A stretch of DNA of 64,000 nt from Pseudomonadota bacterium (GTDB lineage Bacteria; Pseudomonadota; Gammaproteobacteria; Burkholderiales; SG8-39). Position numbers and translations under genes: made by a program. The stretch is from NCBI GenBank assembly GCA_043805375.1, contig JAZDIA010000034.1:9916-73915 (forward strand). The letters run 5' to 3'. Below the pieces are notes generated by a model that searched no databases, had not been told where the DNA came from, and saw only the letters and a program-made list of their open reading frames with translations. Positions 4,872 through 64,000 of this stretch are shown piece by piece (within the stretch, counting starts at the first letter, position 1; every line of letters begins with the position of its first letter).

Positions 4872-4879
4872 TGGTTTTC

Positions 4880-6670
<1,791 letters not shown>

Positions 6671-8411: not shown

Positions 8412-8485
8412 CGTTATGTCCTTTCTTGCGCTTTATGGAGTATTACAGAAAAAAGTTCTGCTGCGGACCTGCGTGCTTTGTTTGA

Positions 8486-24441: not shown

Positions 24442-24534
24442 AGCAAGCGCCGACCGTTATTCATGCCGATCGGATGCGAATTCCGTCAAGCTATCCGCCA
24501 ACAATCACTCCGCCATATCAACAGGGAATAGAGC

Positions 24535-25251: not shown

Positions 25252-25273
25252 CGACAAAGAGGAACCCAGCATC

Positions 25274-28279: not shown

Positions 28280-28313
28280 GACCACTCCCCACTATTTCCC
28301 ATGGAGCAGCGTT

Positions 28314-30888: not shown

Positions 30889-30976
30889 GTTGAGAATAGA
30901 CATCCACGCCTTACCGGCGAAGTATCAGCGTTAGTTGAACACCCCGAAACCCGCTTTTCGCTGGTTTTCCTTTCGA

Positions 30977-32479: not shown

Positions 32480-32784
32480 CCCCTAAGTTCGCTCTGAAAT
32501 CAGAATTTCGGTGAAATCCGACTGGCTGTTATGTTTATAGGATACAGCGTTGCTGTCAAGCACCGCCAAATATGAATGCACATGCATGTTCCCGATGCAG
32601 TTGAGCCTGCGGTCGAACATGGTCGGTGGGTAGAAGAAATGCAGAGATTGAGCGCCAAATGTCTGGTTTGCGCTAACGCTTCTGAACATTTGCCGCACCG
32701 GCTCCCCTGCCGTCAATCTGGCGCCGGGCATCGCGGCATGCGATTTGCCCAAGGCTCGCACTGCCTGTAACATCCCGGTTCATT

Positions 32785-38585: not shown

Positions 38586-39254
38586 CTATTTGATCGAGGC
38601 CGGATCTCTCGCATAAACCACGAACCATCTCTCGGGCATGCCGGCCCCCTGGGGATTGTTCTTACCCTGGAAAATATCGTATTCGCCGACAAGATGAAAT
38701 CCGACGTTTTCCATCCAGGTCTTTACCTGCTCCTTCTTGATCCTGTCTTCGGGAAGATCCCACTTTTTTGCAATCGGGTCATCGTATTCCTGTTCGACGA
38801 TCGCGATTCGCCCGCCGGGTTTGAGGTCGGCGGCGAGCACGCTCAGGTAGCCCTGGCGATCGTTCGTGTTATGAAAAACATCGTGAAAAAAAGCTACATC
38901 CACCTCGTCTTTCGGCAGCTTAGGCTTATCCTGCTCGGAGAGGATCGTCTGCAGGTTGCTTACGCTTTCTTTTCTTGCCTTTGCCTTGACGTGATCCAGA
39001 AGATCCGGCCACAGATCGACAGCCAGAGCTTTTCCAGATGGCGCAACAGCCTTGGCAAATGACAGGGTGAAAGCACCAACACCTGACCCGATATCGGCAA
39101 CCACATCACCGGGTTTTAGCTTCAAGCATGAGATTACTTCGTTGACCTTAAGACCGGATACTCTTTCGGGCCTCTCCAGTCGTTTGATCCAAGTCGCGGC
39201 GTCGGTTAAGTCCTGGTGAGTACCGGGCTTCTTGCCCCCCTGATCTGGATGCAT
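38586..39254 (-). CDS. class I SAM-dependent methyltransferase
   Basis: Motif I VADIGSGVGAFT. Start placed at ATG 39252-39254, which has a gaggag RBS. The ORF maximum is 39302. Confidence 0.7.
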   Translation of the reverse strand: MHPDQGGKKPGTHQDLTDAATWIKRLERPERVSGLKVNEVISCLKLKPGDVVADIGSGVGAFTLSFAKAVAPSGKALAVDLWPDLLDHVKAKARKESVSNLQTILSEQDKPKLPKDEVDVAFFHDVFHNTNDRQGYLSVLAADLKPGGRIAIVEQEYDDPIAKKWDLPEDRIKKEQVKTWMENVGFHLVGEYDIFQGKNNPQGAGMPERWFVVYARDPASIK

Positions 39255-39449
39255 TCTGACTCCTCTGATGAAATTCGCTGGTGAACAGGACAAACCAATC
39301 AAAGCCTATAAACTTCTTCTTCGATCATGCAATAATCATAACAGAAAATCGGCCTATCCCTCTGTCCCGGCCGCGCCAAGCGCCGATGCCAAACATCGCT
39401 GCGGCTCGAGTGCGCGGTCGAGCTAGCGTAACCGCAGACCGAACAAACC

Positions 39450-39851
39450 ATGCCCAATCAGGTCATCGAATTCACTACGGACAAGCGCTTCGTCCGCCGC
39501 GCGCGCGAACTGAAGACCATGGCAGCAATGGTGCGCCTGTACTGCCGCGGACACGATCACCCGGGCCGTTCTCCGCTTTGCGAAGCGTGCGCGGCGCTCC
39601 TCGATTACGCCGCGCGCCGCCTCGATCGCTGCGTCTTCGGAGATTCGAAACCGACCTGCACCAACTGCTTGGTCCATTGCTATAGCGCGGACCTGCGCGA
39701 ACAGGTCAGGGTGGTCATGAAATGGGCCGGTCCGCGCATGCTGTGGCGCCATCCGGTCCTGAGTTTTTTCCACGCGCTCGATGGGCGCCGGCCGGCGCCT
39801 ATGCTGCCTGCTAAGCCGGCGCAGGGTACAGATGATTCTCGCGCTGAATGA
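39450..39851 (+). CDS. YgbA-like 'nitrous oxide-stimulated promoter' family protein
   Basis: 133 aa with Cys-rich motifs RLYCRGHDH...LCEACAALLDYAARRLDRC....KPTCTNCLVHCY, typical of this family. Confidence 0.65.
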   Translation: MPNQVIEFTTDKRFVRRARELKTMAAMVRLYCRGHDHPGRSPLCEACAALLDYAARRLDRCVFGDSKPTCTNCLVHCYSADLREQVRVVMKWAGPRMLWRHPVLSFFHALDGRRPAPMLPAKPAQGTDDSRAE

Positions 39852-40100
39852 CTCCAAGGCGTCGCCCCGGGGCATGCGGCAACGCCAATTCTTCCCGCTT
39901 GAATCCAGCGTTGGAGCGCAGGACGTATCCGCACAGACCGTCGGGATGCCGCACTCGCCTGGCGAGGACTAGCGCCAGCGGCAAATCAGGACGCGCGCAG
40001 GCCACCGGCTCCGCGCCCGCGTGGTTCTACGCGTGTACTCGCGACAACGTAGGCCCGCTTCCGGCCGACAGCGCGCAGTGGCGAACTGGCGCTACCGACA

Positions 40101-41189
40101 CTACGCGATCACTCCGGATTTCGGATCGCCGAACCGAATCGAATTTCGCCCTGCCGCTTTCGCCTGATACATTGCCATATCCGCCTGCTTAATAATATCT
40201 TCCCTGCTCGCTTCGTGATTGATAAATAGCGCCACTCCGATGCTCGCCGTACCATGATATTCAATAGCGGCTTCTACCTCGTTCTCCCGCTGACATTTCA
40301 GCTCGTACCGTCCGGCCAGGACGGCGTGGACTTTTTCCGCCACAACTCTGGACAGTAGGACAGACTTGGCTTTGTCCTTATCCAGTTCACAGAGAACCAG
40401 CACGAACTCATCGCCGCCAAAACGCGCGACCGTATCCATCTCACGTAAGCAACCGGTGATGCGCCGGCCCACCTCCGGCAGCAGCAGATCCCCGATGGTA
40501 TGACCATGCGTATCATTGAGCAGTTTGAAGTTGTCCAAATCGAGAAACATCAGTGCGCCGTACCGTCCACTGCGTTTGCTGGTCGCCATGGCTTGATCCA
40601 ATCGATCGCTCAGCAGACGCCGATTGGGAAGTTGCGTCAACGCGTCATAAAACGCCAAATTGTGAATCTTCTGCTCATTTTCCATACGCTCGCTGATGTC
40701 GCGGGAAACAACGACAACACGCGACGCTTGGCCTTGGCTATTTCTAATCAGCGTGCCGCAGGATTCCATGTAACGGATATTGCCGTTTCCCAGCACAAAG
40801 CGAAAATTCAAGCGATGGCCGCGGCCCGATTGCACGGTGTCCTTGAATGCCCGTTTCACAAGTTCCAAATCAGCTGGATGTATCTCGGCGAAGGAGTCCG
40901 AGCCCTTAAGGGGTTCGACGTCGCCAAAAAGGCCGGCGTAAGAGGGGCTGTTGTAGAGCCGCCGGCCTTGCAGATCAATCACCGCAAAAAAGTCTTCGCT
41001 GTTCTCAACGATCATGCGAAAGAACTCTTCACTTCTTGGCTCGCGTCCATCGGCCCTCTTGGAGGCCGCGCATTGAGGTGCTTCCGTCTGCATTTGCCGG
41101 CTTGGATCGTTGTGCTTCCGCATGTCGTCCCGGTTCACGGGCTTTCCCTCCGTATCCGCGTGCCGACTGTCTTTTCCAGTATACATCAT
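40101..41189 (-). CDS. PAS-domain diguanylate cyclase (GGDEF)
   Basis: PAS segment (FFRMIVENSEDFFAVIDLQGRRLY) followed by a GGDEF domain with an intact RFGGDEFVLVL. The start is uncertain (ORF maximum 41366). Confidence 0.8.
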   Translation of the reverse strand: MMYTGKDSRHADTEGKPVNRDDMRKHNDPSRQMQTEAPQCAASKRADGREPRSEEFFRMIVENSEDFFAVIDLQGRRLYNSPSYAGLFGDVEPLKGSDSFAEIHPADLELVKRAFKDTVQSGRGHRLNFRFVLGNGNIRYMESCGTLIRNSQGQASRVVVVSRDISERMENEQKIHNLAFYDALTQLPNRRLLSDRLDQAMATSKRSGRYGALMFLDLDNFKLLNDTHGHTIGDLLLPEVGRRITGCLREMDTVARFGGDEFVLVLCELDKDKAKSVLLSRVVAEKVHAVLAGRYELKCQRENEVEAAIEYHGTASIGVALFINHEASREDIIKQADMAMYQAKAAGRNSIRFGDPKSGVIA

Positions 41190-41501
41190 CAGTAGAATCC
41201 GGTATTGCCGATCAGCGTAACGGGAACAATCGGCGTGCATTCTGCGCCATGTCATTCGACACTTCAATCCGTCGACCGCCGCCAAAATGGCGGGCCTCGC
41301 GATTGCCGGCCATGAAAGAAATCCCCGGTACAAGCGCGACGACAGTCGCGAACGCGGCTGCCACAACGACCAAGGCGAAGGGGCTCATTAGACTCTTTTT
41401 TCGGAAATTAGGAAACCAATTTTATGCGCCGCTTGCGATCGGAATGTTGACGAAAGTCACGATATGGGGGGGAGGGGGAAGGCGGACGCAGTCAGGCGAC
41501 A

Positions 41502-45740: not shown

Positions 45741-45770
45741 TTGACCCGCCCCCCTCCCTGCCGTTAAAAT
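45741..45770 (+). promoter_or_regulatory. sigma-70-type promoter for tRNA-Asn
   Basis: TTGACC (45741-45746), a 17-bp spacer, then TTAAAAT (45764-45770), followed by a GC-rich discriminator (gcgcc). It lies about 40 nt upstream of the tRNA. Confidence 0.5.
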
Positions 45771-45808: not shown

Positions 45809-45884
45809 TCCCCGATAGCTCAGCCGGTAGAGCGACGGACTGTTAATCCGCAGGTCCGAGGTTCGAACCCTCGTCGGGGAGCCA
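45809..45884 (+). tRNA. tRNA-Asn (anticodon GUU)
   Basis: Hand-folded 76-nt cloverleaf. Acceptor tccccga/tcgggga, D arm gctc-agccggta-gagc, anticodon loop ctGTTaa, T arm cgagg-ttcgaac-cctcg, and an encoded CCA. Confidence 0.93.
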
Positions 45885-45888
45885 ATAT

Positions 45889-45922
45889 CAGAGCCAATCT
45901 CCAAAGGATTGGCTCTTTTTTG
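45889..45922 (+). terminator. Rho-independent terminator after tRNA-Asn
   Basis: Stem agagccaatc/gattggctct with a 7-8 nt loop, followed by tttttt. Confidence 0.6.
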
Positions 45923-46267
45923 TTCAGCCATGTATCCACTGTGTATCCGCTCGGAATCAGCCAACAAAAAGCCCGCCGAAGCGGGCTCTTGATCCTGCTA
46001 CCGCCGGCGCGGTCAGTGCAGCGAAACCTCGGGGTGGTTCGCTTTGCGCTCGTGCAGTTCGTGCTCGCGCAGTACCTGCTCGCGGGTCGGACCGGCTCCC
46101 TCGTTGATTTCCCGCTCGGTCGCTTGCTTGTAGAGCGCCGGTTCAGTTGGGTAACCCAGCTCAGTCCTGCTGCAATGGTCGCTCAGGGCCGAACAGAATC
46201 CGGCAACGCATTCGTCACCATGCGCGGCGCCCCGCTTGCCTGAGACCGTCAGGCGGCGGTTAAGCCC

Positions 46268-46573
46268 TTATGCAGCTTCAAGCCGCTCGATGCGTTCATA
46301 TCCTCCGCGCTGCTCAAGCGTCCAGACATCGACGGCCTGCTGCATGCGTAGCCATATCTCCGGACCATTGCCCAGCAGCTTGCCCAAGCGGATCGCCATG
46401 TCCGCGGTCACGCTGCGCTTTTCAAGCAGCACCTCCGAAACCGTCAGGCGCGAAACCCCAAGGCGGTCGGCAAATTCCTTTTGCGTCAGCCCCAGCGCCG
46501 GCAGCACGTCCTCGCGCAAGATTTCGCCCGGGTGCGTTGGGCGTCGGTTCGGGTTTCTCAAGGTCTTAGCCAT
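46268..46573 (-). CDS. higA: HigA-family antitoxin (XRE-type HTH)
   Basis: 101 aa with HPGEILREDVLPALGLTQKEFADRLGVSRLTVSEVL, a HigA/VapI-type HTH. It overlaps the toxin stop by 1 nt. Confidence 0.8.
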   Translation of the reverse strand: MAKTLRNPNRRPTHPGEILREDVLPALGLTQKEFADRLGVSRLTVSEVLLEKRSVTADMAIRLGKLLGNGPEIWLRMQQAVDVWTLEQRGGYERIERLEAA

Positions 46574-46851
46574 CAGTGATAGTCCTCCAGGTTAAGGTCG
46601 GTCGCGTTCTCACCAACAAAGCGGAACGCGATGCGCCAGTTTCCCGATACAGTCATCGCCCATTCTCCCTTCCGGTCGAATTTCAGCGGGTGCAGGTGCA
46701 TGCCGGCAATATCCAACTGCTCCACAGTGGTTGCCTCTTCGATCAGGTCAAGTATGCGGCGAATGCGCGGCCCGTGCTTGGCATTGATCGCGCGAGCGTC
46801 ATCGTTCTTGAAGAATCGTTCGATGCCCTTGTGTCGGAAATTCTTAATCAT
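46573..46851 (-). CDS. higB: HigB-like RelE/ParE-superfamily toxin
   Basis: 92 aa (MIKNFRHKGIERFF...WRIAFRF...DLNLEDYH), the 'plasmid maintenance system killer' pattern. The toxin lies upstream of the antitoxin, as in higBA. Confidence 0.8.
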   Translation of the reverse strand: MIKNFRHKGIERFFKNDDARAINAKHGPRIRRILDLIEEATTVEQLDIAGMHLHPLKFDRKGEWAMTVSGNWRIAFRFVGENATDLNLEDYH

Positions 46852-46860
46852 GGAAGTAGT

Positions 46861-46899
46861 GTAATCGTATTAAATACGTTATGCAATAGCTTAGATTAC
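46861..46899. promoter_or_regulatory. nested palindromes upstream of higB (candidate operator)
   Basis: cgtatt-a-aatacg (46866-46878) is nested within gtaatc...gattac (46861-46866 and 46894-46899), 10-50 nt upstream of the higB start. Confidence 0.3.
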
Positions 46900-47180
46900 A
46901 TTTTCTCAAGCTGTTACCGCAGGTAAGCCCTCGGATGCGGAGCGGGGAAAACGCGCTAGAACGGTCTGCAAGGCGTTTGCCGCCGTGCCGGCGCCAGAGT
47001 ACCAGCCGTGGACGACTGCGCAGCGGGACAGCCGCAGGCGCAACGCTGAGGGCCGCTGCGTCGAGGTCGCCATAGCCGAGTTCAGCACGCTGTCGAGCCG
47101 GGCGATTGCGGAGATGTGCGGGGTCGGGCACCAATTCGTCAGCATGGTTCGGTTGTCGGCGCGCGCCAACACTGATCGCC

Positions 47181-47206
47181 CCATAACGCGCAGGCTGGTC
47201 AATCTG
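47181..47206 (+). repeat. 26-bp direct repeat, copy A
   Basis: ccataacgcgcaggctggtcaatctg matches 25 of 26 positions in copy B, 1900 bp downstream. Confidence 0.9.
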
Positions 47207-47280
47207 ATTTCTCTAAGCTTGCGCCGACCGCGTCCAAGCCCGACTGCAACAAGTCACTGCGCCTGGATTAGGAGAACCCG

Positions 47281-47907
47281 CTACTGTTTAGGACGAAACC
47301 CCTGCGAAGGACCGGGCGTTGGACGTTGCCCCACTCCTGGGCGCGCCGCCCCTTGAGGCTGTCGCGGAGTAACAACTGCACTCTGTGGCGGTCTCGGATT
47401 AACACCCGCACTCGGTGGTCGTTGGACGGGACGGTCAGCCGGCATTGGACGCTGCTCTCCTCCTGGACGTGGCCCGAGTTGTGGCTGTCGCGGATTAATG
47501 GTTGCGCGCGGTGGCAGGTGACTCCATTGCGGCATCTGCCTGTACCAGGGCCGGCCGATGTAGTGATCCTGCCAGTAACTACCGCTGATGAAAGTGACAA
47601 CGCCAATACCGATCGCGGCACCGTAGTTAATCACGGGAACATTCGCCCCTTGGTAGGAATAGGCGATGTTACGTGCATACACCCAGCCCCTGTTTGGCCC
47701 CGCAATAACATCACACCAGCTGTAATCTTGCAGACACCCCTGAACATCCACGGTAAACCCACCTCCTAGGATCGCCACCACGGGATAGTCTCTGGCGGGT
47801 CCGGCGCGCAGGTGGGCAGTCTTGGCGGTATAAGCCACCTGTGCACTTGCTGCAACCGGAAGGGCGAGCGTTGCCGCGGCAAGAACCAGCACTTTCAGAT
47901 AGTTCAT
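47281..47907 (-). CDS. secreted SH3b-domain protein with a Pro/Gln-rich tail
   Basis: 208 aa with a signal peptide (ALPVAASAQ) and an SH3b-like LRAGPARDYPVVAILGGGFTVDVQGCLQDYSWCDV..GWV. The C-terminal repeats are NPRQPQ, NPRPPQ and TPRQPQ. Confidence 0.65.
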   Translation of the reverse strand: MNYLKVLVLAAATLALPVAASAQVAYTAKTAHLRAGPARDYPVVAILGGGFTVDVQGCLQDYSWCDVIAGPNRGWVYARNIAYSYQGANVPVINYGAAIGIGVVTFISGSYWQDHYIGRPWYRQMPQWSHLPPRATINPRQPQLGPRPGGEQRPMPADRPVQRPPSAGVNPRPPQSAVVTPRQPQGAARPGVGQRPTPGPSQGFRPKQ

Positions 47908-48340
47908 ATTTCACCCCCTTTTCTGTTCTATTACTGCCATGAGATAGCGATAAATACGACGCCATGAAACTTGGATCTCGAAGAATATTGCTAGGCGCGG
48001 GCGACATTCCACCATCTTCGTTAGCGCCTCACATTCCACCAGGGATACCACTTTCATGATTTATCGCTACAGTCGCTCCACAGGAGTTCAGGCTAGCAAG
48101 TTCGCGCGACGATAGTGGTAAGCAATTGTTTCAATCTGTAAGCGGCGGCTTGTGTCGGCCAGGTCCGTTGCTATCCAGCGTAGCGGGCGAGGCGCATAGC
48201 TCCACAGGGACCCCCCCACCCCTTGCGTAGGACGCCACGGCGGGTCCGTCCTGTCGATTTATGCTACCGTGGTGCCGTATCCGTAGGCTCCCGTGTTACC
48301 GCAACGGGGGGTGTACGGCCAAGTGCGGAAAGCACAACGT

Positions 48341-48889
48341 ATGAATACAAACATAATCATTGAGATCTTCCTGGCGTTTGTGGTGTCGTTTGCCGGTAGG
48401 GGTCTTTGGCAAGTGCTGAAGCGCAACGGCTTCGTTGTAAGCGTAATGCGCGATGAATCAATCCTATCCAATCTAATTTCCCGCAGCAGGTTGAACAGTG
48501 CGTCACCAGTCATTACTGTCTGGGCACAAAAACTTCCAAGCGGAAATTCCGGATACTTCGGATACCCCGTAAATATCCAAGTTTTGATTGCTGCGGACAA
48601 GGGGGCGGAGCGCAAGATGAAAATAATGTCGGGATTCGTGCTGTTGGGAGTAGTACTCGGAAGCTACCTCTTGGGCACAGTGTATCTTGCCATTAACGTG
48701 ATCATCATTTTCCTTTCCGCGATACCGGGCATCTCCGCGCCGACCCGTGACAACGCTTTAATCTATGTTATGCAACTGGCTGTCATCCTCGACAAGTGGC
48801 GTGCAGAAAATGCAACCGAGTGCGAGCAGTGGATCGACCAAGCGTGGAGCCTTCGCCCACTTTATAACGCGGTAAAGACCGCTCGATGA
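48341..48889 (+). CDS. hypothetical membrane protein
   Basis: Start at MNTNIIIEIFLAFVVSF. There are about three hydrophobic helices and no recognisable family. Confidence 0.4.
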   Translation: MNTNIIIEIFLAFVVSFAGRGLWQVLKRNGFVVSVMRDESILSNLISRSRLNSASPVITVWAQKLPSGNSGYFGYPVNIQVLIAADKGAERKMKIMSGFVLLGVVLGSYLLGTVYLAINVIIIFLSAIPGISAPTRDNALIYVMQLAVILDKWRAENATECEQWIDQAWSLRPLYNAVKTAR

Positions 48890-49055
48890 CTTGTAGCCGA
48901 TGCGAACCGCCTGTGAGCACCACGCCAACTCAATCGCCTCTAGTGCCCCGCCGCACAGTACATTGTGGTCCGTTGCTGCGCGGTCAGCATTGACCGTCGT
49001 GCGCGACTTGCGCTGACCACCCCTCACCCACCCAATTCCTTGGCTGGATGAGCGT

Positions 49056-49829
49056 TTGGTGAGGCTTCACCCCGATTACGCCATAACGCGCAGGCCGGTC
49101 AATCTGCTCCGCGCCAACAACAGAATTTGGGTCATAATGACAGAAGATCGATTTAAGGGAGCCTGGATCAAGATGCTTACGACCGATATTGGCAAGCGCA
49201 TCGAGCTGGTGTCGATGGATTCCCATTGCCTTGATATCTCGATTGCACTTTATCTGCAGGACCACGGTCAAGGGCCGGAGTTTCTCGTTCATACCTACAG
49301 CCGTCACCTGGAAGCGATACAGCGGGTCGATTTCATCTGCCGGGGAATGATCATCCTAGGAGGAATGGAATTCGTCCAGAATGGGTCGGGCCGGGTTCGA
49401 TTTTCCTGCCATGGAGATCATCTGAAGGCTTGCGCAAGGGTCTTTCTTGAAGTTTGCAAGTTGCCGAATGGAAGTCCGTTGGCGCCAAAAGAGTTGCTGA
49501 TCTTTGATAAGAAATCGAACCGGAATATCCGCGTGATCTCGGGTCCGGGAAGCGTCCGCCAGTTGACGGCGGATGGCCCGGACAATGAGGAGAAAACCCT
49601 CCGCATGTCTGCTGTGGCTCAGGGATTGACCAAACTTGCCGAATTGCAAGTGGGTGGACAAGGCACGAATCAGCTTTCCTTTTCCTGCGGCCAGACTCAC
49701 GATCGATTGATTGGTCTTTTGCTCGCGAGGTCCTTGAACGTCAGGGCCGTGCTGCGGGAGCAGGAGTTGGCGGCAGGGAGAGGCATTCTTTCTGCGCCCA
49801 GCGCCCGGAATGAGTCGATGAATCTCTAG
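49056..49829 (+). CDS. hypothetical protein immediately upstream of the corrinoid methyltransferase genes
   Basis: 257-aa ORF with a GTG start at 49056 preceded by ggatgag. An alternative ATG at 49137 gives MTEDRFKGAW. No recognisable motif. Composition matches the downstream lower-GC cassette. Confidence 0.45.
   Translation: MVRLHPDYAITRRPVNLLRANNRIWVIMTEDRFKGAWIKMLTTDIGKRIELVSMDSHCLDISIALYLQDHGQGPEFLVHTYSRHLEAIQRVDFICRGMIILGGMEFVQNGSGRVRFSCHGDHLKACARVFLEVCKLPNGSPLAPKELLIFDKKSNRNIRVISGPGSVRQLTADGPDNEEKTLRMSAVAQGLTKLAELQVGGQGTNQLSFSCGQTHDRLIGLLLARSLNVRAVLREQELAAGRGILSAPSARNESMNL
49081..49106 (+). repeat. 26-bp direct repeat, copy B
   Basis: ccataacgcgcaggccggtcaatctg lies inside the 5' end of ORF 49056-49829. 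Confidence 0.9.
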
Positions 49830-49873
49830 GTCAGCGCGTATCCCCTGTTGACAAACGGGTGAAGGAGTATGTG

Positions 49874-50947
49874 ATGCATAGCTTGAGTCAGATCATTCCT
49901 CCCATGACCGGGCGGCAGCGCGTTTTGGCGGCTTTGCGCCGGGAGCCCGTGGATCAAACGCCCGTTTGCAATCCAACCTCGGTTGCCACCGTGGAGCTGA
50001 TGGACCTGGTGGACGCCCCATTTCCGGATGCTAATCGCGTCCCGGAAAAAATGGCCCGTCTGGCCGCAACCGGGCACACCGAGTTGGGGTTCGATAGTGT
50101 GATGCCGGTCTTCAGCGTTATCCAGGAGTCTTCCGCTTTGGGCTGCAAGATTCAGTGGGAACAGAAAGACAATTGGCCTACCGTAAAAATGCGCGAACCG
50201 ATCTGGGAGGATGTCGGCGATATCCGGATTTCTCCGAATCTTCTGGATCATCCCGACATGCAGTGCGTCGTTCAGGCGATCAAGATCCTCAGAAGAGAGT
50301 TGGGCAATGAGGTCGCCATCATCGGAAAGACAATGGGGCCCTGGTCACTGGCTTATCATTGTTTTGGCGTGGAGCCTTTCCTGCTGTTGTCTTCAGATGA
50401 CCCCGGCAAGACCAAAGCTGTCCTCGACAAGCTCAAGGAAATCACGGTCCTGTTCGGTTTAGCCCAGATTGAGGCGGGAGCAGATGCTTTGACGTTACCC
50501 GATCATGCCACGGGTGATTTGGTCAGCGGCGAATACTACGCCAGGTACTTGCGTGATCTTCACAGGGAATTTGCCGAGCGACTGCCTGCCCCGATTATTC
50601 TTCATATTTGCGGCAAGACCACGGATCGCATGGAATACATCGCGCAGACAGGAATGGCCGCTTTTCATTTCGACTCGAAAAACGATCCGGGTGAATCCAT
50701 GAACATCGTGCAAAAGCGCATTTCCCTGGTAGGGAATATCAATAACCCGGAGACGCTTTTCTCGAAAGGTCCTGAAGAGGTTCGTCTGGAAGTCTATAAG
50801 AATTTGGAGGCCGGGGTGCAACTGGTCGGACCCGAATGCGCTATACCGCTTCAGACAGCCATTGAGAATTTGAAGGAAATTCCCAAGGCGGTGCGCGACT
50901 GGCATCGGGCGCAGCGCACCAAGGTGGCAGCAGGAACCACTGCCTGA
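49874..50947 (+). CDS. URO-D/MtaA-family, Zn-type corrinoid methyltransferase
   Basis: aaggag RBS followed by ATG 49874. About 357 aa. The H-x-C...C zinc-ligand pattern of MtaA/MtbA-type enzymes is present (ILHICGKT ... VGPECAIP). Length and layout fit the uroporphyrinogen-decarboxylase fold. Confidence 0.8.
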   Translation: MHSLSQIIPPMTGRQRVLAALRREPVDQTPVCNPTSVATVELMDLVDAPFPDANRVPEKMARLAATGHTELGFDSVMPVFSVIQESSALGCKIQWEQKDNWPTVKMREPIWEDVGDIRISPNLLDHPDMQCVVQAIKILRRELGNEVAIIGKTMGPWSLAYHCFGVEPFLLLSSDDPGKTKAVLDKLKEITVLFGLAQIEAGADALTLPDHATGDLVSGEYYARYLRDLHREFAERLPAPIILHICGKTTDRMEYIAQTGMAAFHFDSKNDPGESMNIVQKRISLVGNINNPETLFSKGPEEVRLEVYKNLEAGVQLVGPECAIPLQTAIENLKEIPKAVRDWHRAQRTKVAAGTTA

Positions 50948-51066
50948 ATCCGGAACCGGCTGTATGGCGGGCCCCTCTTGTGGCCGGCCATCCGCCGGAC
51001 GGCGGCCGGGGCGTCAGCCACCTTGGCTGCAACTCCTGCCTACATTCCATTTTTGATGAGGTCAGC

Positions 51067-51831
51067 ATGGTAGAAGTCAAGGATATTCAAAATGAGTTCA
51101 TTCGAACGGAAATTGAAGAGTTTATTGAACGGCCCGAGGAACGTGCGCGCATCATCCAAGTGTTTTCCAAGGCGCATCCGGATCTCCAGGCCATTGCGGC
51201 AGCCCTGATCGAAGGGGAGAACAAGCTCGTTGACCAGTTGACCCGCCGAGCCCTGGATACGGGTTTTGAGGCGTTGGATGTCATGGACAACGGATTGATT
51301 GCCGGGATGGCAATCGTGGCGATCAAATTCCGGCAGTCCTTCATTTATGTTCCAGAGGTTTTGACCTGCGCTCGCGCTATGAGAGCTGGGATGTGTCACA
51401 TTGAGCCGATCCTTTCGGCCTCGGGCATTAAACCCGTGGGTACGGTGATCATGGGAACGGTCAAGGGTGACCTTCATGACATTGGGAAGAACCTTTGCAT
51501 CATGATGTTACGAGGAACGGGTTTTATCGTCCATGACCTGGGGGTAGACACATCGTCGGACCGTTTCATCGAGGCCGTCGAAGAACACCATGCGCCTCTC
51601 CTGGGGATGTCGGCTCTGTTGACGACAACCATGCCCAACATGGGCAAAACGATCGAAGCCTTCATCGATGCAGGACTTCGGGATAAGATCAAAATCATGG
51701 TGGGAGGAACTCCAGTCACTCAGGAATTTGCCGATGACATGGGTGCCGATGGCTACGGCAAGGATGCCATGGCATGCGTGTCGTTGGCGAAACAGTTGCT
51801 TGGCGTGGAGGCCGGTGTGAGGAATCCGTAA
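51067..51831 (+). CDS. corrinoid (cobalamin-binding) protein
   Basis: Start at MVEVKDIQ. An N-terminal helical cap region is followed by a Rossmann domain with the full DxHxxG / SxL / GG cobalamin-binding motif set (GDLHDIGKN, MSALLTTT, MVGGTPV). Confidence 0.9.
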   Translation: MVEVKDIQNEFIRTEIEEFIERPEERARIIQVFSKAHPDLQAIAAALIEGENKLVDQLTRRALDTGFEALDVMDNGLIAGMAIVAIKFRQSFIYVPEVLTCARAMRAGMCHIEPILSASGIKPVGTVIMGTVKGDLHDIGKNLCIMMLRGTGFIVHDLGVDTSSDRFIEAVEEHHAPLLGMSALLTTTMPNMGKTIEAFIDAGLRDKIKIMVGGTPVTQEFADDMGADGYGKDAMACVSLAKQLLGVEAGVRNP

Positions 51832-51833
51832 AA

Positions 51834-52073
51834 ATGCAAAAAATCGATCCGGAGCAATATCAAAAACGTCTTGACCACATTACGGAATTATTTACCAGTA
51901 TGGTTGTTCACGCCGATGAACTCTCGAAAAGCCGCTGCCCCTATAAGAACCGCCTCAATCAGTGCACCGCACACGTTGGATGCCGGAACAAGACGAAACC
52001 TGCGGAAACGGGCAGCCCGCCAATCTGTGCCGGGGATGACAAGTTAGACTACCGCGGCGCCTGGGAAACATAG
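51834..52073 (+). CDS. 79-aa four-cysteine protein of unknown function
   Basis: The ATG lies 2 nt after the corrinoid-protein stop. Sequence MQKIDPEQYQKRLDHITELF...SRCPYKNRLNQCTAHVGCRNKTKPAETGSPPICAGDD, with spacing C-x8-C-x5-C-x16-C. Confidence 0.5.
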   Translation: MQKIDPEQYQKRLDHITELFTSMVVHADELSKSRCPYKNRLNQCTAHVGCRNKTKPAETGSPPICAGDDKLDYRGAWET

Positions 52074-52134
52074 CTGGAAATCAGGGAACTAAAAGTGGGC
52101 GGGCGATGCGTCTCTTTTCCCTGCTGCTTCTGAG

Positions 52135-53784
52135 ATGGCGACCATATCCTGCGAAGGAAACTCATGCGGTGGACGTCACGGGGCGTCCCTGTTTGAGTGC
52201 GCTGACGCATTGACGATCCAGTTGCCGAGCTCTTGCGGGCGCAAGGGAACCTGCCATGAGTGTATCGTTGAAGTTGTAGAAGGCCTGAACGCCCTGAATT
52301 CGCCCACTCAGGCGGAATTCTTCCTGCGCGATCAATGCAGACTCGCTTGTCAGGCCAGGATCGAGAATCCCAAGATTGACATCCGCTTTGCGCCCTTTCG
52401 GCGGTACTCCAAAATCCTGACCGCCAATCAGGAGAGATCCCTCCAACTGGACCCCCAGGTGACACGCCGCGGAGATGAAGTCTATTACGGTCAGGAACCG
52501 ATTGACCGCTATCGCGGCCACCTCTATGGGGTCGCCGTGGATCTGGGCACCACAACTGTGGTGTGTGACCTGGTCGATCTGGAAACGGGTTCGTCCCTCT
52601 GCCTGAGTTCTTTTGACAACCCGCAGCGGTTTGGCGGAAGCGACATAATGAACCGGATATCCTACGACGGAGGCCCATTTCACGGTGAATTGCACAAGGC
52701 CATCATCCATGCTCTAAACCATGAGATTCGAGAAATCTGCCAGAAGATGGGCGTTAACCGGGAAGAGATCTACGAAATCGTGGTTGCCGGAAATTCCACG
52801 ATGAGAGACCTGTTTTTTGACATCGACGTTCAGAGCATCGGGCGGAAGCCTTACAAATCAGTGATTGAATTGGAAATGCTTGCCGGAAAGCGTCATGGGA
52901 CGGTCTTGGTTGAAAAAGCGACCAAACTTGGCATCCAGATTCATTCCAAGGCCAGGATTTATGGCATGCCATTGATTGCCAGCCATGTTGGAGCCGACAC
53001 GGTGGCAGACTTGATCGCGATGGACATGGACTCTCAACAGGATGTTGTCATGGTGGTGGATGTTGGAACCAATACAGAGGTCGTCGTTGGATATGCCGGC
53101 AGGATGTTGATTGCTTCCTGTCCGGCAGGACCCGCCTTTGAAGGAGGTGCCGTCAAATACGGGATGCCTGGTTGTGATGGCGCCATTGAGAGTTTGTCCC
53201 GGAAGGATGGAGAATTTGACTACCGGACCATTGGAGGAGCCGCCCCCCGGGGAATTTGCGGTTCCGGTCTCATTGATCTGTTGGCTGAATTGCGCCGCCA
53301 TGGACTCATGACGTCGAAAGGAGTTTTCGCGGACAAGAAATATATCTTGGATATCGTGCCAAAATATGGCATCACCTTCTCTCGGGAGGATGCCAGTTAT
53401 CTTGCCCAGGCCAAAGCAGCTAACTATTGCGGTCAGTATATCCTGATGCGGGAATTTGGGGTTAGCCCGACAGATATCCAAACACTCTATCTGGCGGGAG
53501 GATTCGCTAATTACATTGATGTGGCCAACGCAATTGAGATCGGTTTTCTGGCGCCTGTAGCGCAAGAGCGCATCGTGAAGATCGGGAATGCCTCGGTCCA
53601 AGGAGCCCGGGAGATTTTGCTCTCAAAAAGCAGGCGTGATTCAATCCAGGAATTATTCAAACATATCGCTCACATTGAGTTGGAAACCACACCTGATTTC
53701 TTTGAGCTTTTTGTCGAGGGATGTCAATTTAAGCCGATGCCGAACGAAATCGTTTCATTGGCGGCCCCCGGAATGGAAGGATAG
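52135..53784 (+). CDS. RACo-type ATP-dependent reductive activase of corrinoid proteins (2Fe-2S ferredoxin + ASKHA/DUF4445)
   Basis: 549 aa. The N-terminal C-x5-C-x2-C...C pattern is SSCGRKGTCHEC ... RLACQA. The ASKHA phosphate-1 motif is GVAVDLGTTTVVCDLV, with later VDVGTNTEVV. Confidence 0.85.
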   Translation: MATISCEGNSCGGRHGASLFECADALTIQLPSSCGRKGTCHECIVEVVEGLNALNSPTQAEFFLRDQCRLACQARIENPKIDIRFAPFRRYSKILTANQERSLQLDPQVTRRGDEVYYGQEPIDRYRGHLYGVAVDLGTTTVVCDLVDLETGSSLCLSSFDNPQRFGGSDIMNRISYDGGPFHGELHKAIIHALNHEIREICQKMGVNREEIYEIVVAGNSTMRDLFFDIDVQSIGRKPYKSVIELEMLAGKRHGTVLVEKATKLGIQIHSKARIYGMPLIASHVGADTVADLIAMDMDSQQDVVMVVDVGTNTEVVVGYAGRMLIASCPAGPAFEGGAVKYGMPGCDGAIESLSRKDGEFDYRTIGGAAPRGICGSGLIDLLAELRRHGLMTSKGVFADKKYILDIVPKYGITFSREDASYLAQAKAANYCGQYILMREFGVSPTDIQTLYLAGGFANYIDVANAIEIGFLAPVAQERIVKIGNASVQGAREILLSKSRRDSIQELFKHIAHIELETTPDFFELFVEGCQFKPMPNEIVSLAAPGMEG

Positions 53785-53843
53785 ATCCTATTGCCGGCAT
53801 CGATCCGTGGAGACGTGAATACCATAAGAACGGGAAGGACAAA

Positions 53844-54899
53844 ATGGAGATTAAAGCTCTGAGAAAGAACTTTATTGTTGTCGGTGAGAATATCCACGCA
53901 ACGAGGGTACTCCTTCGCGGAGGGCAGTCTGTCACCACAACCGAAGGAGGGCAGGAAGCCGTCCGCTTCCAAGGGGTTGACGGGGAAACGCGCTATCTCC
54001 CCATTCCGGAAGAATACAAGAATACACAGGAATACCGGGACGGGCGAGTCAAACACATCAAGATTGCAATTCAGGCAGCAATGTCGGGACGTGAGTCCGA
54101 AGCCCAGCCAGGTCTGGAGTATTTGCAGCAGAAGGTTCGACAACAGCTCGATGCGGGAGCCGATTTCATTGATCTGAACGTCGATGAGGTTTCTTTACGT
54201 CCCGAAGACCAGAAGGCGGCTATGTCATGGCTGGTCCAGACGGTACGGCCAATATGTTCGGTTCCACTCTCTATTGATTCTTCCAATACCGAGACCATTC
54301 GTGCGGGATTAGAAGCCGGCAAGGGACACAACGGCAGACCCCTGCTCAATTCAGCTTCACTGGAACGAAAGTCGGCGCTGGAACTCGTTGTTGAATATCG
54401 GGCACAAGTGGTTGTGACGGCTGCCGGAGAAAGCGGCATGCCTGAGGACGATGTCGAACGGGTCGCCAACGCTTCGCGAATCGTGGAACTGGCTCTTGAA
54501 AAAGGCATTCCGCTTCACGATCTCTACATTGATGCCCTGGTGTTTCCGATATCGGTCGACAGTGATTACGGCAACCACTATTTCGAAGCGGTTCGCAAGC
54601 TTCGCGAAAAGTTCGGTCCCGAAATCCATATTACCGGCGGGCTCAGTAATGTGTCCTTTGGCCTTCCGATGCGCCGACTGGTGAACAACGTGTTCCTGAT
54701 TCTGGCGACCGAAGCGGGGGCCGACAGCGGCATCATCGATCCCGCTGCCGGTAGAGTAGATCAAGTGCTTGCAATGGACCGTCAGTCCCGGAGCTACCAG
54801 GTGGCGGCGGACTTATTGCTTGGCCGTGACATCGGCTGTCGCGACTTCCTGCGTGCCTTTCGGAGTAAAGAGCTTCAGACAGGTGTTGGAGCCAGCTAA
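53844..54899 (+). CDS. pterin-binding methyltetrahydrofolate:corrinoid methyltransferase (MetH/AcsE-like domain)
   Basis: 351 aa with motifs in the usual Pterin_bind order: VGENIHATR, ADFIDLNVD, PLSIDSS, LLNSASLE, YIDALVFP and TGGLSNVSFGLP. A ggaagga RBS lies upstream. Confidence 0.85.
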   Translation: MEIKALRKNFIVVGENIHATRVLLRGGQSVTTTEGGQEAVRFQGVDGETRYLPIPEEYKNTQEYRDGRVKHIKIAIQAAMSGRESEAQPGLEYLQQKVRQQLDAGADFIDLNVDEVSLRPEDQKAAMSWLVQTVRPICSVPLSIDSSNTETIRAGLEAGKGHNGRPLLNSASLERKSALELVVEYRAQVVVTAAGESGMPEDDVERVANASRIVELALEKGIPLHDLYIDALVFPISVDSDYGNHYFEAVRKLREKFGPEIHITGGLSNVSFGLPMRRLVNNVFLILATEAGADSGIIDPAAGRVDQVLAMDRQSRSYQVAADLLLGRDIGCRDFLRAFRSKELQTGVGAS

Positions 54900-54937
54900 G
54901 ACCCTGGACGCAGGCTGACTTCGATGTCTGCGAATAT

Positions 54938-54981
54938 TGTTAATCCGCAGGTCCGAGGTTCGAACCCTCGTCGGGGAGCCA
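54938..54981 (+). repeat. 44-bp copy of the tRNA-Asn 3' half (attR-like)
   Basis: tgttaatccgcaggtccgaggttcgaaccctcgtcggggagcca is identical to 45841-45884. No 5' half of a tRNA precedes it. Confidence 0.92.
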
Positions 54982-55028: not shown

Positions 55029-55226
55029 TCAACAACACCCGCCGGAGCGCCCGGAACCGTAATGCGCTTCCTGACGATTCCGGAAAAACTCGATTTCGGT
55101 CATGACGGGCCAGTCGGGATGCGTTGCGCGCAGGTGCGCGGCATAGGTTTCGTAGTCGGGCAGGCCGACCATCAACTTGGCGGCCTGCCCGAGATACTTC
55201 CCATACTTTGATAGATCGTTGAACAA
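55029..55226 (-). CDS. ybdD: YbdD/YjiX-family small protein
   Basis: A TTG start gives [57 protein letters not shown]...CC (compare E. coli YbdD [28 protein letters not shown]). Lies directly downstream of cstA. Confidence 0.8.
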   Translation of the reverse strand: [65 protein letters not shown]

Positions 55227-55230
55227 GATG

Positions 55231-57294
55231 TCAGCCCTTGACGGTTGACATCGCTTGGTACGGCATTTCGCAACTCGTGTCCTTGTCTTCACGCAAGGCC
55301 TTCAGGCACGAGATGACGGTGTAGTAAAGCATGCTGATGACCACGAAGATGAACAGCACGGCCAGTGCGGCATCCAGGTAGTTGTTGGAGACGATCTGCT
55401 GCATCTGCTCGACGCTCGTGGCCGGGGCGAGAACCTCTCCCTTGTCCAGAGCTGCCTGGAACTTGCCGGCCAGGGCGAGGAAGCCGATCTTCGGATTGAC
55501 GTCGAAGACCTTGTGCCAGCCCGCAGTCAGGGTGCAGACAAGCAGCCAGGATGCCGGCAAGATCGTGACCCACGCGTACTTCTGCCGTTTCATCTTGAAC
55601 AGAACAACCGTGCAAAGCATGAGCGCGACACCGGCCAGCATCTGGTTGGAAATGCCGAACAGCGGCCACAGGCTGTTGATGCCGCCAAGGGGATCGATCA
55701 CGCCCTGATAGAGGATGTATCCCCAGCCAGAGACGCAAAGGCCGGTAGCGATCACGTTGGCAGTCCAGGAGCGGGTCTGCTTGAGGGACGGAACGAAGAC
55801 GCCCAGCAGATCCTGCAGCATGAAGCGTCCGGCGCGCGTGCCGGCGTCACATGCAGTCAGGATGAACAGCGCCTCGAACAGGATGGCGAAGTGGTACCAG
55901 AAGGCCATCATGGCCTGGCCGCCGATTATCTGAGAGAATATCTGGGCCATGCCCACAGCCAGCGTCGGCGCGCCGCCCGCACGCGACAAAATGCTGTTCT
56001 CACCCACATCCTTCGCGGTCTGAATGAGCACGTCAGGCGTGATCACGAAACCCCACTGCGAGATGGCTTGCGCTGCGCCTTCCACGGTCGTGCCGATAAT
56101 GGCGGCCGGGCTGTTCATTGCGAAATAGACGCCCGGATCGATGATCGAAGCGGCAACCATCGCCATGATGGCAACGAAGGACTCCATCAGCATGCTGCCG
56201 TAACCGATCATGCGGGCGTTCTTCTCGTTGTCGAGCATCTTCGGCGTCGTGCCGGACGAGATCAGCGAATGAAAGCCCGAGACCGCCCCGCAGGCAATGG
56301 TGATGAAGATGAACGGGAACAGGCTGCCCGACCAGACCGGACCGGTTCCGTCGACGAACTGCGTGACTGCCGGCATGCGCAAGCTCGGTGCGACAAAGAC
56401 CATGGATATCGCCAGACAGATGACCGTTCCGATCTTAAGGAAGGTCGACAAGTAGCCGCGCGGCGCGAGCAGCAGCCACACCGGCAACACCGCCGCGACA
56501 AAGCCGTAGATGATGAGCATCCAGCTCAACTGCTTGCCGTCGAAGGTGAACATCGGCGCCCACGTCGGACTTTGCGATACCTGACCGCCGATGATGATGG
56601 CTGCGATCAGCAACACGAAGCCGATGATCGATACTTCGCCGACTCGTCCGGGGCGAAGGAAGCGGTTATAGACGCCCATGAACATGGCGATGGGGATGGT
56701 GGCGGCCACGGTGAAGGTTCCCCACGGGCTTACGGCCAGCGCTTTGACCACGATCAGCGCCAGAACGGCGAGGATGATCACCATGATCATGAACGTGGCA
56801 AACAGGGCGATCATGCCCGGGACCAGACCCAGTTCCGACTTGATGAGTTCGCCGAGCGAACGTCCGTCACGACGCGTCGAAACAAACAGCACCATGGAGT
56901 CCTGCACGGCGCCGGCGAGTACGACACCGACGATGATCCAGAGCGTTCCCGGCAGGTAACCCATCTGCGCCGCAAGCACCGGCCCGACCAGCGGCCCGGC
57001 ACCGGCAATGGCGGCGAAGTGTTGACCGAACAGGATGTACTTGTTTGTTGGAACGTAATCAAGACCGTCATTGCGGCGGACGGCCGGGGTAAGCCGCGTC
57101 GGGTCGAGTTGCATGACCTTATCGGCGATGTACAGGCTGTAGTACCGGTACGCCACCAGATAGATTGAAACTGCGGCAGAGATTATCCACAAGGCGTTGA
57201 TCGTTTCGCCCCGGGATAGCGCCACCGTGCCGAGGCAGAAGACCCCGACTGCGGTCAAGAGCCACCAAATGACATGTTTGGAAACGAGATTCAT
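55231..57294 (-). CDS. cstA: carbon starvation protein A (peptide/pyruvate transporter family)
   Basis: About 687 aa and polytopic. The N-terminus MNLVSKHVIWWLLT...RGETINALWIISAAVSIYLVAYRYYSLYIA matches the CstA pattern. Confidence 0.9.
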   Translation of the reverse strand: MNLVSKHVIWWLLTAVGVFCLGTVALSRGETINALWIISAAVSIYLVAYRYYSLYIADKVMQLDPTRLTPAVRRNDGLDYVPTNKYILFGQHFAAIAGAGPLVGPVLAAQMGYLPGTLWIIVGVVLAGAVQDSMVLFVSTRRDGRSLGELIKSELGLVPGMIALFATFMIMVIILAVLALIVVKALAVSPWGTFTVAATIPIAMFMGVYNRFLRPGRVGEVSIIGFVLLIAAIIIGGQVSQSPTWAPMFTFDGKQLSWMLIIYGFVAAVLPVWLLLAPRGYLSTFLKIGTVICLAISMVFVAPSLRMPAVTQFVDGTGPVWSGSLFPFIFITIACGAVSGFHSLISSGTTPKMLDNEKNARMIGYGSMLMESFVAIMAMVAASIIDPGVYFAMNSPAAIIGTTVEGAAQAISQWGFVITPDVLIQTAKDVGENSILSRAGGAPTLAVGMAQIFSQIIGGQAMMAFWYHFAILFEALFILTACDAGTRAGRFMLQDLLGVFVPSLKQTRSWTANVIATGLCVSGWGYILYQGVIDPLGGINSLWPLFGISNQMLAGVALMLCTVVLFKMKRQKYAWVTILPASWLLVCTLTAGWHKVFDVNPKIGFLALAGKFQAALDKGEVLAPATSVEQMQQIVSNNYLDAALAVLFIFVVISMLYYTVISCLKALREDKDTSCEMPYQAMSTVKG

Positions 57295-63488: not shown

Positions 63489-64000
63489 TCAGAGTGCGAC
63501 GGTGGAGGCACGATCTTCGCTCGCCGGCGGCGCCGGCTTGCGTCCGGCGCGCACGCCCGACTCGCGCACGATGCCCGGAATAAAATGATTCTGGCGCTGC
63601 GCCATGATGTGCACACCGGCGATGCCGCGTATCGCGCGTATTGCCTGGATGAGTTCGATGCAGATCTTGCGCCCTTCGGCGCGGGGATCGGCCGCCTGCT
63701 CCAGCCGCGTGACGACTTCGTCCGGGATGTGCACGCCGGGCACCTTGCTCCTCAGCCAGCGCGCAGTGCGCGCCGAGCCTATGGGTCCGACACCGATGAG
63801 GATGTGGCAGCGCTCGTGCAGCCCTTCGTCGCGCACGCGCTGCATGTAGGCTTCGAGCAAGCCGAGGTCGAAGCAGTACTGCGTCTGCACGAACTGCGCG
63901 CCGGCAGCTATCTTGCGCGCGAGGCGCATCGGCCGCATGTCGTAGGGCGGAACAAAGGGGTTGTCCGCACCGCCCAGGAAAAGGCGCGGCACCGCGTTCA
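63489..64000 (-). CDS. metF: methylenetetrahydrofolate reductase (MetF-like), C-terminal part; gene continues beyond the window end
   Basis: ...KIAAGAQFVQTQYCFD...ILIGVGPIGSARTARWL.SKVPGVHIPDEVV.RL...IELIQAIRAIRGIAGVHIM is colinear with the C-terminal half of MetF-type MTHFR. Confidence 0.7.
   Translation of the reverse strand, partial: NAVPRLFLGGADNPFVPPYDMRPMRLARKIAAGAQFVQTQYCFDLGLLEAYMQRVRDEGLHERCHILIGVGPIGSARTARWLRSKVPGVHIPDEVVTRLEQAADPRAEGRKICIELIQAIRAIRGIAGVHIMAQRQNHFIPGIVRESGVRAGRKPAPPASEDRASTVAL

Follow-up and report, generated by a model that had tools for sequence, protein, structure and literature searches.

The 64-kb stretch of DNA analyzed here (hereafter, the window) belongs to a 102-kb contig of a metagenome-assembled genome (MAG) that was deposited as Pseudomonadota and is placed in Burkholderiales by its neighbor genes. 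In this window, an intact tRNA-Asn gene and an exact copy of its 3' half delimit an interval (45885-54937) that is probably the remnant of a tyrosine-integrase island. The parent island, likely of the P4 type, would have integrated into the segment of the tRNA gene that starts at the anticodon loop and ends with the CCA, and would later have been gutted, re-filled and rendered immobile. The original prediction, made from the sequence of the window alone, described a single island, either immobilized or mobilized in trans. The notion of a single island turns out to be too simple: the interval is a mosaic in which four or more acquisitions sit on a backbone that has been gutted.

The tRNA-Asn repeat is the scar of an integrase

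The tRNA-Asn(GTT) gene on the attL side of the interval (45809-45884, + strand; ARAGORN; 67 bits with the Rfam tRNA model) is intact, is preceded by a promoter-like site at 45741-45770 (promoter scan) and is the only tRNA gene that ARAGORN detects in the window. Positions 33-76 of the tRNA (copy 1 of the direct repeat, 45841-45884, +) recur in the same orientation at 54938-54981 (copy 2, +; the attR core), with identity at all 44 positions, and the match cannot be extended by even one base on either side. The repeat begins at the second base of the anticodon loop (position 33) and ends at A76 of the CCA, and there is no tRNA 5' half beside copy 2, just as originally described. No third copy is present in the 64 kb even with up to three mismatches allowed, and the chance expectation is none as well. 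Apart from the tRNA, Rfam detects no known RNA or riboswitch in the interval. The 44-nt repeat is real and is an integrase scar; its geometry, which the original prediction attributed to tyrosine integrases that insert in the anticodon loop, matches the published signature, and relatives have both integrases and repeat-bounded islands in the same place.

The locus is an integration hotspot

The comparison covered 80 loci from species genomes, collected by a scan for the aminotransferase gene that precedes the tRNA, and 19 further metagenomic contigs (individual loci and contigs are denoted by L numbers). The order uvrB-aminotransferase-tRNA-Asn is kept in ~100 Burkholderiales loci and, judging from what lies next to the tRNA gene in these sequences, this conserved locus is an integration hotspot. 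Integrase genes are located directly beside the conserved tRNA-Asn in six loci (L002, L017, L030, L035, L079 and L101), integrase fragments are found at the locus in L095, L096 and L098, and prophage lysis genes adjoin the tRNA in L003. Tandem arrays are observed as well. In L101 (reoriented such that the tRNA is on the + strand), the intact tRNA (1504-1579) is followed by an integrase gene (1606-2667, - strand); the 3' part of the tRNA is then repeated as a 46-nt copy (5825-5870) and, together with the terminator, as a third copy (8369-8453). In L105, which represents the species group closest to the window (90% nucleotide identity), the intact tRNA is followed by a 2.7-kb insert and by two more copies, first a decayed one and then an exact one, with a 107-nt stub between them. 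The copies that bound the tandem islands of L101 and L105 are 44-46 nt long and start at A31/C32, and the displaced copies in L101, L105 and L051 start at positions 26-32 and end at the CCA or beyond. The L051 locus holds an 860-bp interval without an integrase, with a higBA-like pair as its sole content, between tRNA-Asn and a decayed 3' half.

Relatives that carry the same 9 kb without the repeat, which the original prediction regarded as a case against the island, are not seen: none of the 80 species genomes and 19 metagenomic contigs contains any part of the 9 kb. Exact-protein look-ups of the genes of the window returned no contigs beyond the source MAG, and a megablast search for a plasmid vehicle gave no match among 72,556 plasmids.

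Some relatives record further steps of island decay at this locus. In L097 (343-537, reoriented), L098 (1086-1280, reoriented) and L105 (5529-5724), two copies of the tRNA half lie 152 nt apart with the 107-nt stub between them. This stub consists of both arms of an L101-type island, with an ACGTAG repeat pair on one side and ..TTAGGGCCTAAAGAACAA on the other; all of the island except its arms has been deleted, and the stub is shared by two different strain backgrounds. In L051, which comes from another genus, the stretch 4724-5712 comprises tRNA-Asn with its terminator, the higB/higA-like pair and the decayed half followed by a second homologous terminator.

The interval is foreign to its host and has no integrase

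The interval is foreign to the host, as follows from its shifted nucleotide composition, its absence from all relatives and the tracing of the cassette at its right end to another lineage. The GC content is 55.2% between the repeats, compared with 61.1% and 59.1%, respectively, to the left and to the right. The GC content of third codon positions (GC3) is 0.85-0.86 in uvrB and the aminotransferase gene and 0.81 in cstA, the flanking genes, compared with 0.55-0.64 in the SH3b open reading frame (ORF), the unknown ORFs and the cassette, and 0.70-0.73 in higBA. The GC-rich appearance that had been noted for the left 2 kb of the interval stems in part from a proline-rich ORF, and by GC3 this part is foreign too. 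Outside the island, GC3 is lowered to 0.59-0.77, against ~0.8 elsewhere, in two other stretches of the window (24500-32500 and 38586-41366). Genes for a GGDEF/PAS protein and a methyltransferase lie in these stretches, which may represent more acquired DNA.

The reported absence of an integrase between the repeats stands after Pfam searches with the ORFs and with six-frame fragments of the gaps, and tblastn with three different integrases from relatives finds none in the entire 64-kb window. The two gaps that had been singled out as places for integrase remnants (45885-46267 and 46852-47280) contain none, and neither do 47908-48340 and 48890-49055 (Pfam with E-values up to 5; tblastn).

A recently transferred corrinoid methyltransferase operon

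The gene content of the interval is that originally described, namely higBA, an SH3b protein, unknown ORFs and a corrinoid cassette that ends 38 nt before the repeat (Pfam, NCBIfam). The corrinoid methyltransferase cassette (49112-54936, +) is a 5.8-kb block of six genes that is collinear with L083, L084 and L081 except for a gene for methylenetetrahydrofolate reductase (MTHFR). The operon is led by a gene for a 218-aa protein (unk218; 49173-49829, +) that matches no family, followed by an MtaA/CmuA-family methyltransferase of the URO-D/MtaA type (49874-50947, +; 249 bits with TIGR01463, against a cut-off of 235.4; PDB 4ay7, E-value 5e-52), a corrinoid protein (51067-51831, +; Pfam B12-binding and B12-binding_2), a 79-aa ORF (51834-52073, +) without a family match, a RACo activase (52135-53784, +; RACo middle and C-terminal domains and Fer2 in Pfam) and a pterin-binding methyltransferase (53844-54899, +; Pfam Pterin_bind), the stop codon of which lies 38 nt before the repeat. 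The NCBIfam equivalog cut-offs are not reached by the corrinoid protein, RACo or the pterin-binding methyltransferase. Both unk218 and the 79-aa ORF are conserved in all copies of the operon from the donor lineage (L081, L083).

By nucleotide identity, the cassette was acquired from a distant lineage with ~52% GC. The segments 49124-53784 and 53788-54909 are 94.3% and 96.4% identical, respectively, to L083 (8.6 kb, 52% GC), and 53788-54936 is 96.2% identical to L084; the identity of the cassette to L081 is 81%. Both L083 and L084 are ~80-82% identical to L081 (616 kb, 50% GC), with syntenic flanks: a gene for a GntR regulator precedes the operon in L083, a Virulence_fact gene follows it in L084, and in L081, purU lies beyond the regulator, with lysW/lysX genes nearby. 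In L081, the operon is ordinary chromosomal DNA. The nearest named homolog comes from a Terriglobia MAG and shows 75% identity. The donors encode MTHFR between RACo and the last gene of the operon, whereas the window has a clean 1.59-kb deletion at this place, with the scar at 53785-53787. A host-like MTHFR gene (metF; 63489-63992, -; GC3 of 0.82) is located 8.5 kb from the cassette, and the gene lost from the operon is redundant. All six cassette genes are intact, with the same lengths as in the donor, are under purifying selection, with a ratio of nonsynonymous to synonymous change (pN/pS) of 0.21 relative to L083, and retain the GC3 of the donor; hence, the transfer is recent, and these genes are likely to be functional.

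By analogy with the cmu pathway (see below), the encoded system most likely passes a methyl group from a donor compound via the corrinoid protein to tetrahydrofolate; no characterized close homolog was found. A corrinoid/folate methyl-transfer system is now part of a Burkholderiales genome and is open to substrate testing.

The junctions of the operon

Both limits of the homology to the donor can be placed almost to the nucleotide. On the left, the similarity fades at ~49112-49124, ~50 nt upstream of the first cassette gene, such that the palindromic GntR operator of the donor was left out of the transferred DNA. On the right, the homology to L084 extends to 54936 (..GCGAATA), followed by a single T and, from 54938, by the tRNA half; the donor lineage runs on differently after GCGAATA. 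Given that donor DNA reaches to within 1 nt of the tRNA half, no island arm is left beside the displaced half. The island is immobile because it has no integrase, no excisionase and no right-side arm, which bears out the first of the two options in the original prediction; the second one, mobilization in trans, is unlikely with donor DNA abutting the displaced half.

In all bona fide displaced copies of relatives, the start lies 1-2 nt earlier than in the repeat of the window; for this reason, the left edge that the 44-mer now has is a secondary joint, created on arrival of the operon. The joint between the cassette and the tRNA lies inside the anticodon loop, the presumed crossover segment, as would result from an exchange with a non-att site catalyzed by an integrase, but also, about one time in ten, from a random break within the gene. 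The donor site GCCTGCGAATAAAAGCCCTAAG shows no likeness to the anticodon stem-loop or the att core. A tRNA gene of the donor as the anchor of recombination was considered and ruled out, there being no tRNA in L081-L084. Capture of the operon by the island's own integrase, through recombination between the att core and a non-att site downstream of the operon in the foreign DNA, is conceivable but doubtful. If it did occur, tRNA-island integrases would occasionally act as gene-capture devices, at the cost of their own arm and mobility.

A terminator and paired heptamers next to the tRNA

The tRNA gene is followed by an intrinsic terminator with an 11-bp stem (45890-45922, +; stem at 45890-45916, T run to 45922; terminator scan), whereas the same scan shows no comparable terminator 3' of 54981, that is, after copy 2. 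This asymmetry was listed in the original prediction as unusual; the observation is correct, but there is no anomaly, the intact tRNA genes of the clade being arranged in the same way. The same hairpin is found 3' of the intact tRNA in L004, L006, L007, L093-L096, L099 and L104-L113, and 3' of displaced tRNA halves in L097, L098, L100, L101 and L105; in L105, the direct repeat is exact over ~88 nt and includes both the core and the terminator. The native terminators at the tRNA-Asn locus of other genera all differ from that of the window.

Three observations suggest transport of the hairpin with mobile DNA. First, strains with 97-99% identity over uvrB-aminotransferase-tRNA-terminator diverge completely directly 3' of the terminator. 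Second, the terminator shows 98.8% identity in the distant host L101, where the aminotransferase is only 68% identical to that of the window. Third, each of the three post-core sequences in L101 opens with a hairpin. In the integrase-bearing island of L101, the order is hairpin, a short direct-repeat pair, int. Comparable paired repeats are seen in the clade of the window, where two heptamers ~11 nt apart follow the terminator at a distance of 12-25 nt; in the window, they read TGTATCC-N4-TGTATCC (45931-45948, +; copies at 45931 and 45942). The heptamers vary by lineage, with both copies changing in concert (TGTATCC in the window, and GTATCC, TGTAGGC and GGGTTAC elsewhere), and are candidate arm-type integrase sites. 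We infer that the terminator and the heptamers, the latter probably as arm-type sites, make up the tRNA-proximal arm of an island family. If so, an island-borne terminator with concerted heptamer pairs is a usable signature for decayed islands at the tRNA-Asn locus.

Heptamer pairs of this kind were found, besides the window, in L004, L006, L007, L093-L101 and L104-L113. A related pair, ATATCC/TGTATCC, occurs in L087-L092 after tRNA-Leu(CAA), upstream of a higBA module that is 90% identical to the one in the window.

The left part of the interval

At its tRNA-proximal end, the interval retains what similarity to intact homologs identifies as the relic of a mobile-element gene (46013-46237, -; stop-to-stop frame). 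It comprises the last 74 codons and the stop codon of a gene for a protein of 133-147 aa, and is followed by the terminator of the truncated gene (45965-45988, -; AGCCCGC-CGAA-GCGGGCT, with the A run on the + strand), which is homologous to that in L103. The frame of 84 codons (46016-46267) has no start codon and was considered as a possible integrase C-terminus, which was ruled out given that it belongs to a family of small hypothetical proteins (133-147 aa); its last 74 codons are 80% identical to residues 74-147 of family member P0280. In L102, the intact homolog is the fourth gene after a P4-type integrase (Arm-DNA-bind_3, Phage_int_M and Phage_integrase) and is followed by two AlpA genes and a DnaB-like helicase gene. 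In L103, the homolog converges on tRNA-Asp and ends ~220 nt from the 3' end of the tRNA, as in the window. No viral relatives of the relic gene were found.

The relic gene is cut at 46232-46237 by the left edge of a 669-bp higBA module (46232-46900, -) that shows 90% nucleotide identity to L087-L092, groundwater contigs in which the module lies directly after tRNA-Leu(CAA). The module consists of higA (46268-46573, -; HTH_3 in Pfam, 107.7 bits with TIGR02607 against a cut-off of 47.7) and higB (46573-46851, -; Pfam HigB-like toxin PF05015, E-value 9e-18). With higB upstream of higA and an overlap of 1 nt, the pair qualifies as a HigBA type II toxin-antitoxin system.

Next to this module is the SH3b ORF (47281-47907, -), which encodes a signal peptide, an SH3b domain (Pfam SH3_3/SH3_4) and a proline-rich tail, with a GC3 of 0.56. 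The ORF contains an internal 75-nt repeat (47315-47389 and 47441-47515, 72% identical). The protein numbering of the depositor omits it, with HigB and the following hypothetical protein numbered consecutively; the ORF is possibly a pseudogene, or was merely not called. The next gene, deposited as a hypothetical protein, is a membrane-like ORF of 182 aa (48341-48889, +) that matches no family and is preceded by a 36-nt hairpin element (48276-48311; CGTATCCGTAGGCTCCCGTGTTACCGCAACGGGGGG) without an Rfam match. This element recurs with 92% identity in L100 (8750-8785, reoriented copy), where the context is alike, the element coming after a tRNA half, a terminator and a higBA-like pair and before an unknown ORF of low GC3. 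The SH3b ORF and the 182-aa ORF are bracketed by the copies of a 38-nt direct repeat (copy 1, 47169-47206, +; copy 2, 49069-49106, +; 84% identical), with a core, CCATAACGCGCAGGCYGGTCAATCTG, that matches at 25 of 26 positions. Copy 2 ends ~10 nt from the left limit of the donor DNA. The possibility that this repeat is a tRNA or att fragment found no support.

Alternative explanations

On the right, copy 2 is followed by a host-like flank with ybdD (55029-55226, -; Pfam Sel_put) and cstA (55231-57294, -; Pfam CstA). The segment 57504-54984 is 92.9% identical to L085, and this homology stops within 3 nt of the 44-mer. The original prediction proposed a search for relatives with an empty locus, in which the aminotransferase gene and tRNA-Asn are directly followed by ybdD-cstA. 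The left half of this arrangement exists, the left flank with the tRNA being present in ~100 loci, but the right flank is found only in L085 and L086, and the two are never joined: none of the 80 aminotransferase loci has ybdD/cstA or island genes downstream, no contig was found in which tRNA-Asn is directly followed by TCTTCTTTG..ybdD, and an exact 26-mer of the right flank has no match in metagenomes. In the contexts of the nearest CstA homologs, the neighbor of ybdD is a radical S-adenosylmethionine gene (L085) or cobW (L086), with no tRNA in either case. The L085 flank was also considered as a decayed tRNA half, which was ruled out, its local alignment score not exceeding those of shuffled sequences.

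The following observations weigh against the derivation of the interval from a single integration event. L085, the nearest relative with cstA-ybdD, has neither a tRNA nor the repeat at this flank, and the empty site was not found in the relatives searched (80 loci and the metagenomic contigs). No integrase follows the terminator and heptamers in the relatives seen, and in L094, L104 and L099, the sequence becomes host-like soon after these elements (GC3 of 0.8-0.9, within ~1 kb); the terminator could be native, resident host DNA. The arrays of relatives keep the same terminator after the displaced half, whereas the copy in the window does not. The two copies of the repeat need not come from one event. 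Either cstA-ybdD may be the true native flank of tRNA-Asn in the lineage of the window, with L085 rearranged, or the 44-mer may have been fused to ybdD later, in which case the right-hand junction itself is secondary.

Taken further, the second option would make the 44-mer a genuine integrase scar whose partner is not the tRNA end now present: at this hotspot, several islands would have accreted and been deleted, the 44-mer would have been joined to ybdD by a later deletion, for instance, via GCCA, the repeats would not delimit one insertion, and the terminator and heptamers would be resident. The tandem arrays and 107-nt stubs in relatives (L097, L098, L101, L105) are compatible with such a history, as are the missing terminator after copy 2 and the break of synteny with L085 exactly at the end of the 44-mer, where L085 reads ..TCTGCCACTATTCTTCG.. 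and the window ..GAGCCATCTTCTTTG.., with the 4-nt GCCA microhomology visible in L085. Nevertheless, an array remnant appears rather unlikely: it requires more events than one island, the composition switches from foreign to host exactly at both copies of the repeat, and there is no further copy of the repeat or of the terminator to the right within the window. It is very unlikely, in turn, that copy 2 is what remains of a second tRNA-Asn gene just upstream of ybdD, the 5' 32 nt of which, along with the spacer, gave way to foreign DNA brought in by illegitimate recombination with no integrase involved. In favor of this reading, Oxalobacteraceae commonly have tRNA-Asn genes in tandem here, at distances of 140 bp to 8 kb, the tRNA half directly adjoins donor chromosomal DNA without an intervening island arm, and the donor sequence bears no resemblance to the anticodon stem-loop at the joint. 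However, a second full tRNA-Asn, which the original prediction named as an outcome at odds with the island, is found in none of the ~30 loci of the window's own clade, nor is there a tRNA beside ybdD in L085; furthermore, the joint lies in the 7-nt anticodon loop, where the island repeats of relatives begin, a coincidence of ~1 in 10, and a mobile-element relic is present at the tRNA-proximal end.

The least probable explanation, and a quite remote one, is an assembly artifact, with the cassette or the right flank misjoined across the tRNA-derived repeat. In its favor, the source is a MAG contig of 102 kb, and the contigs with 94-96% identity to the cassette belong to another organism and share a run of assembly accession numbers with L085. 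However, the left joint at ~49112 contains no shared repeat that could mislead an assembler, and on the right, the donor lineage differs after GCGAATA and has no tRNA there. In addition, the copy in the window differs from L083 by 4-6% and has the clean MTHFR deletion, with the host metF 8.5 kb away, and the repeat, at 44 nt, does not reach the k-mer length given in the names of the related assemblies (k141). The remnant of a tyrosine-integrase island remains the preferred explanation.

History and significance of the interval

If this explanation holds, integration would have rebuilt the tRNA gene with sequence brought by the island, which would also have supplied the terminator and probably arm-type sites, and would have displaced the original 3' half of the tRNA, now at 54938-54981. 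The backbone would then have been gutted, with the higBA module landing in the gene nearest to the tRNA, and the segment with SH3b and the unknown ORFs would have been added afterwards. In the latest step, the 5.8-kb operon from a distant, lower-GC lineage would have taken the place of all DNA as far as the crossover point in the displaced half, with the loss of its MTHFR gene.

A remnant of this kind is ordinary and well known, but the present one is resolved in unusual detail, and the nucleotide-level record of a recent operon transfer into an island stump is worth keeping. Standard island finders filter out islands without an integrase, the subsequent history of which is therefore rarely read; in the present case, the two ends of a recent inter-lineage transfer could be placed. 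The interval is a compact example of a dead island at a tRNA hotspot that serves as a continuing landing pad for metabolic operons.

Comparison with known systems

An attB that starts at the anticodon loop and ends with the CCA has been described for one group of integrases (bioRxiv 10.1101/2020.11.02.365908; Islander, PMC4383910). The interval resembles the anticodon-centered attP class of Islander in that the intact tRNA is rebuilt by island sequence and the displaced 3' fragment lies at the far end in the same orientation. It differs in that Islander requires an integrase gene inside the interval, whereas the window has none, and in that the arm beside the displaced fragment has been replaced by chromosomal DNA of another lineage. 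The tRNA-Asn target is shared with the asn-tDNA islands of Enterobacteriaceae (ICEKp or high-pathogenicity-island type and degenerate relatives). In one survey, there are islands of this kind that contain both repeats and an integrase, and a few have just the repeats or neither feature, such that repeat-flanked tRNA-Asn islands lacking an integrase are on record (bioRxiv 10.1101/2020.11.02.365908). However, the attB of the asn1 integrases (group I.a) in this survey mostly starts in the T-loop, whereas the repeat in the window starts in the anticodon loop, and the host gene order and the cargo are different as well.

The interval is also like the islands of L101, L105, L051 and L002 with respect to the tRNA, the 44-46-nt repeat, the layout of the terminator and heptamer pair and the cargo of toxin-antitoxin modules; these islands keep an integrase (L101 and L002) or keep the terminator after the displaced half, whereas the window has neither. 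Integrases of the lambda type are capable of secondary-site integration and aberrant excision, which join the att core to unrelated DNA at the crossover segment. The joint between the cassette and the tRNA differs from such aberrant joints in that no evidence of an integrase making it is seen and the donor site is unlike the core.

In the cmu pathway of Methylobacterium extorquens CM4, the methyl group passes from the substrate to a corrinoid and on to tetrahydrofolate by means of an MtaA/CmuA-family methyltransferase and a methylcobalamin:tetrahydrofolate methyltransferase, MetF and PurU then oxidize the folate-bound one-carbon unit, and the pathway is horizontally mobile (PMC3621897). The donor clusters are similar in that L081 and L083 contain the MTHFR gene and L081 also contains purU. 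In contrast to cmu, the cassette in the window encodes the methyltransferase and the corrinoid protein in separate genes, and adds a RACo-type activase and the 218-aa lead gene.

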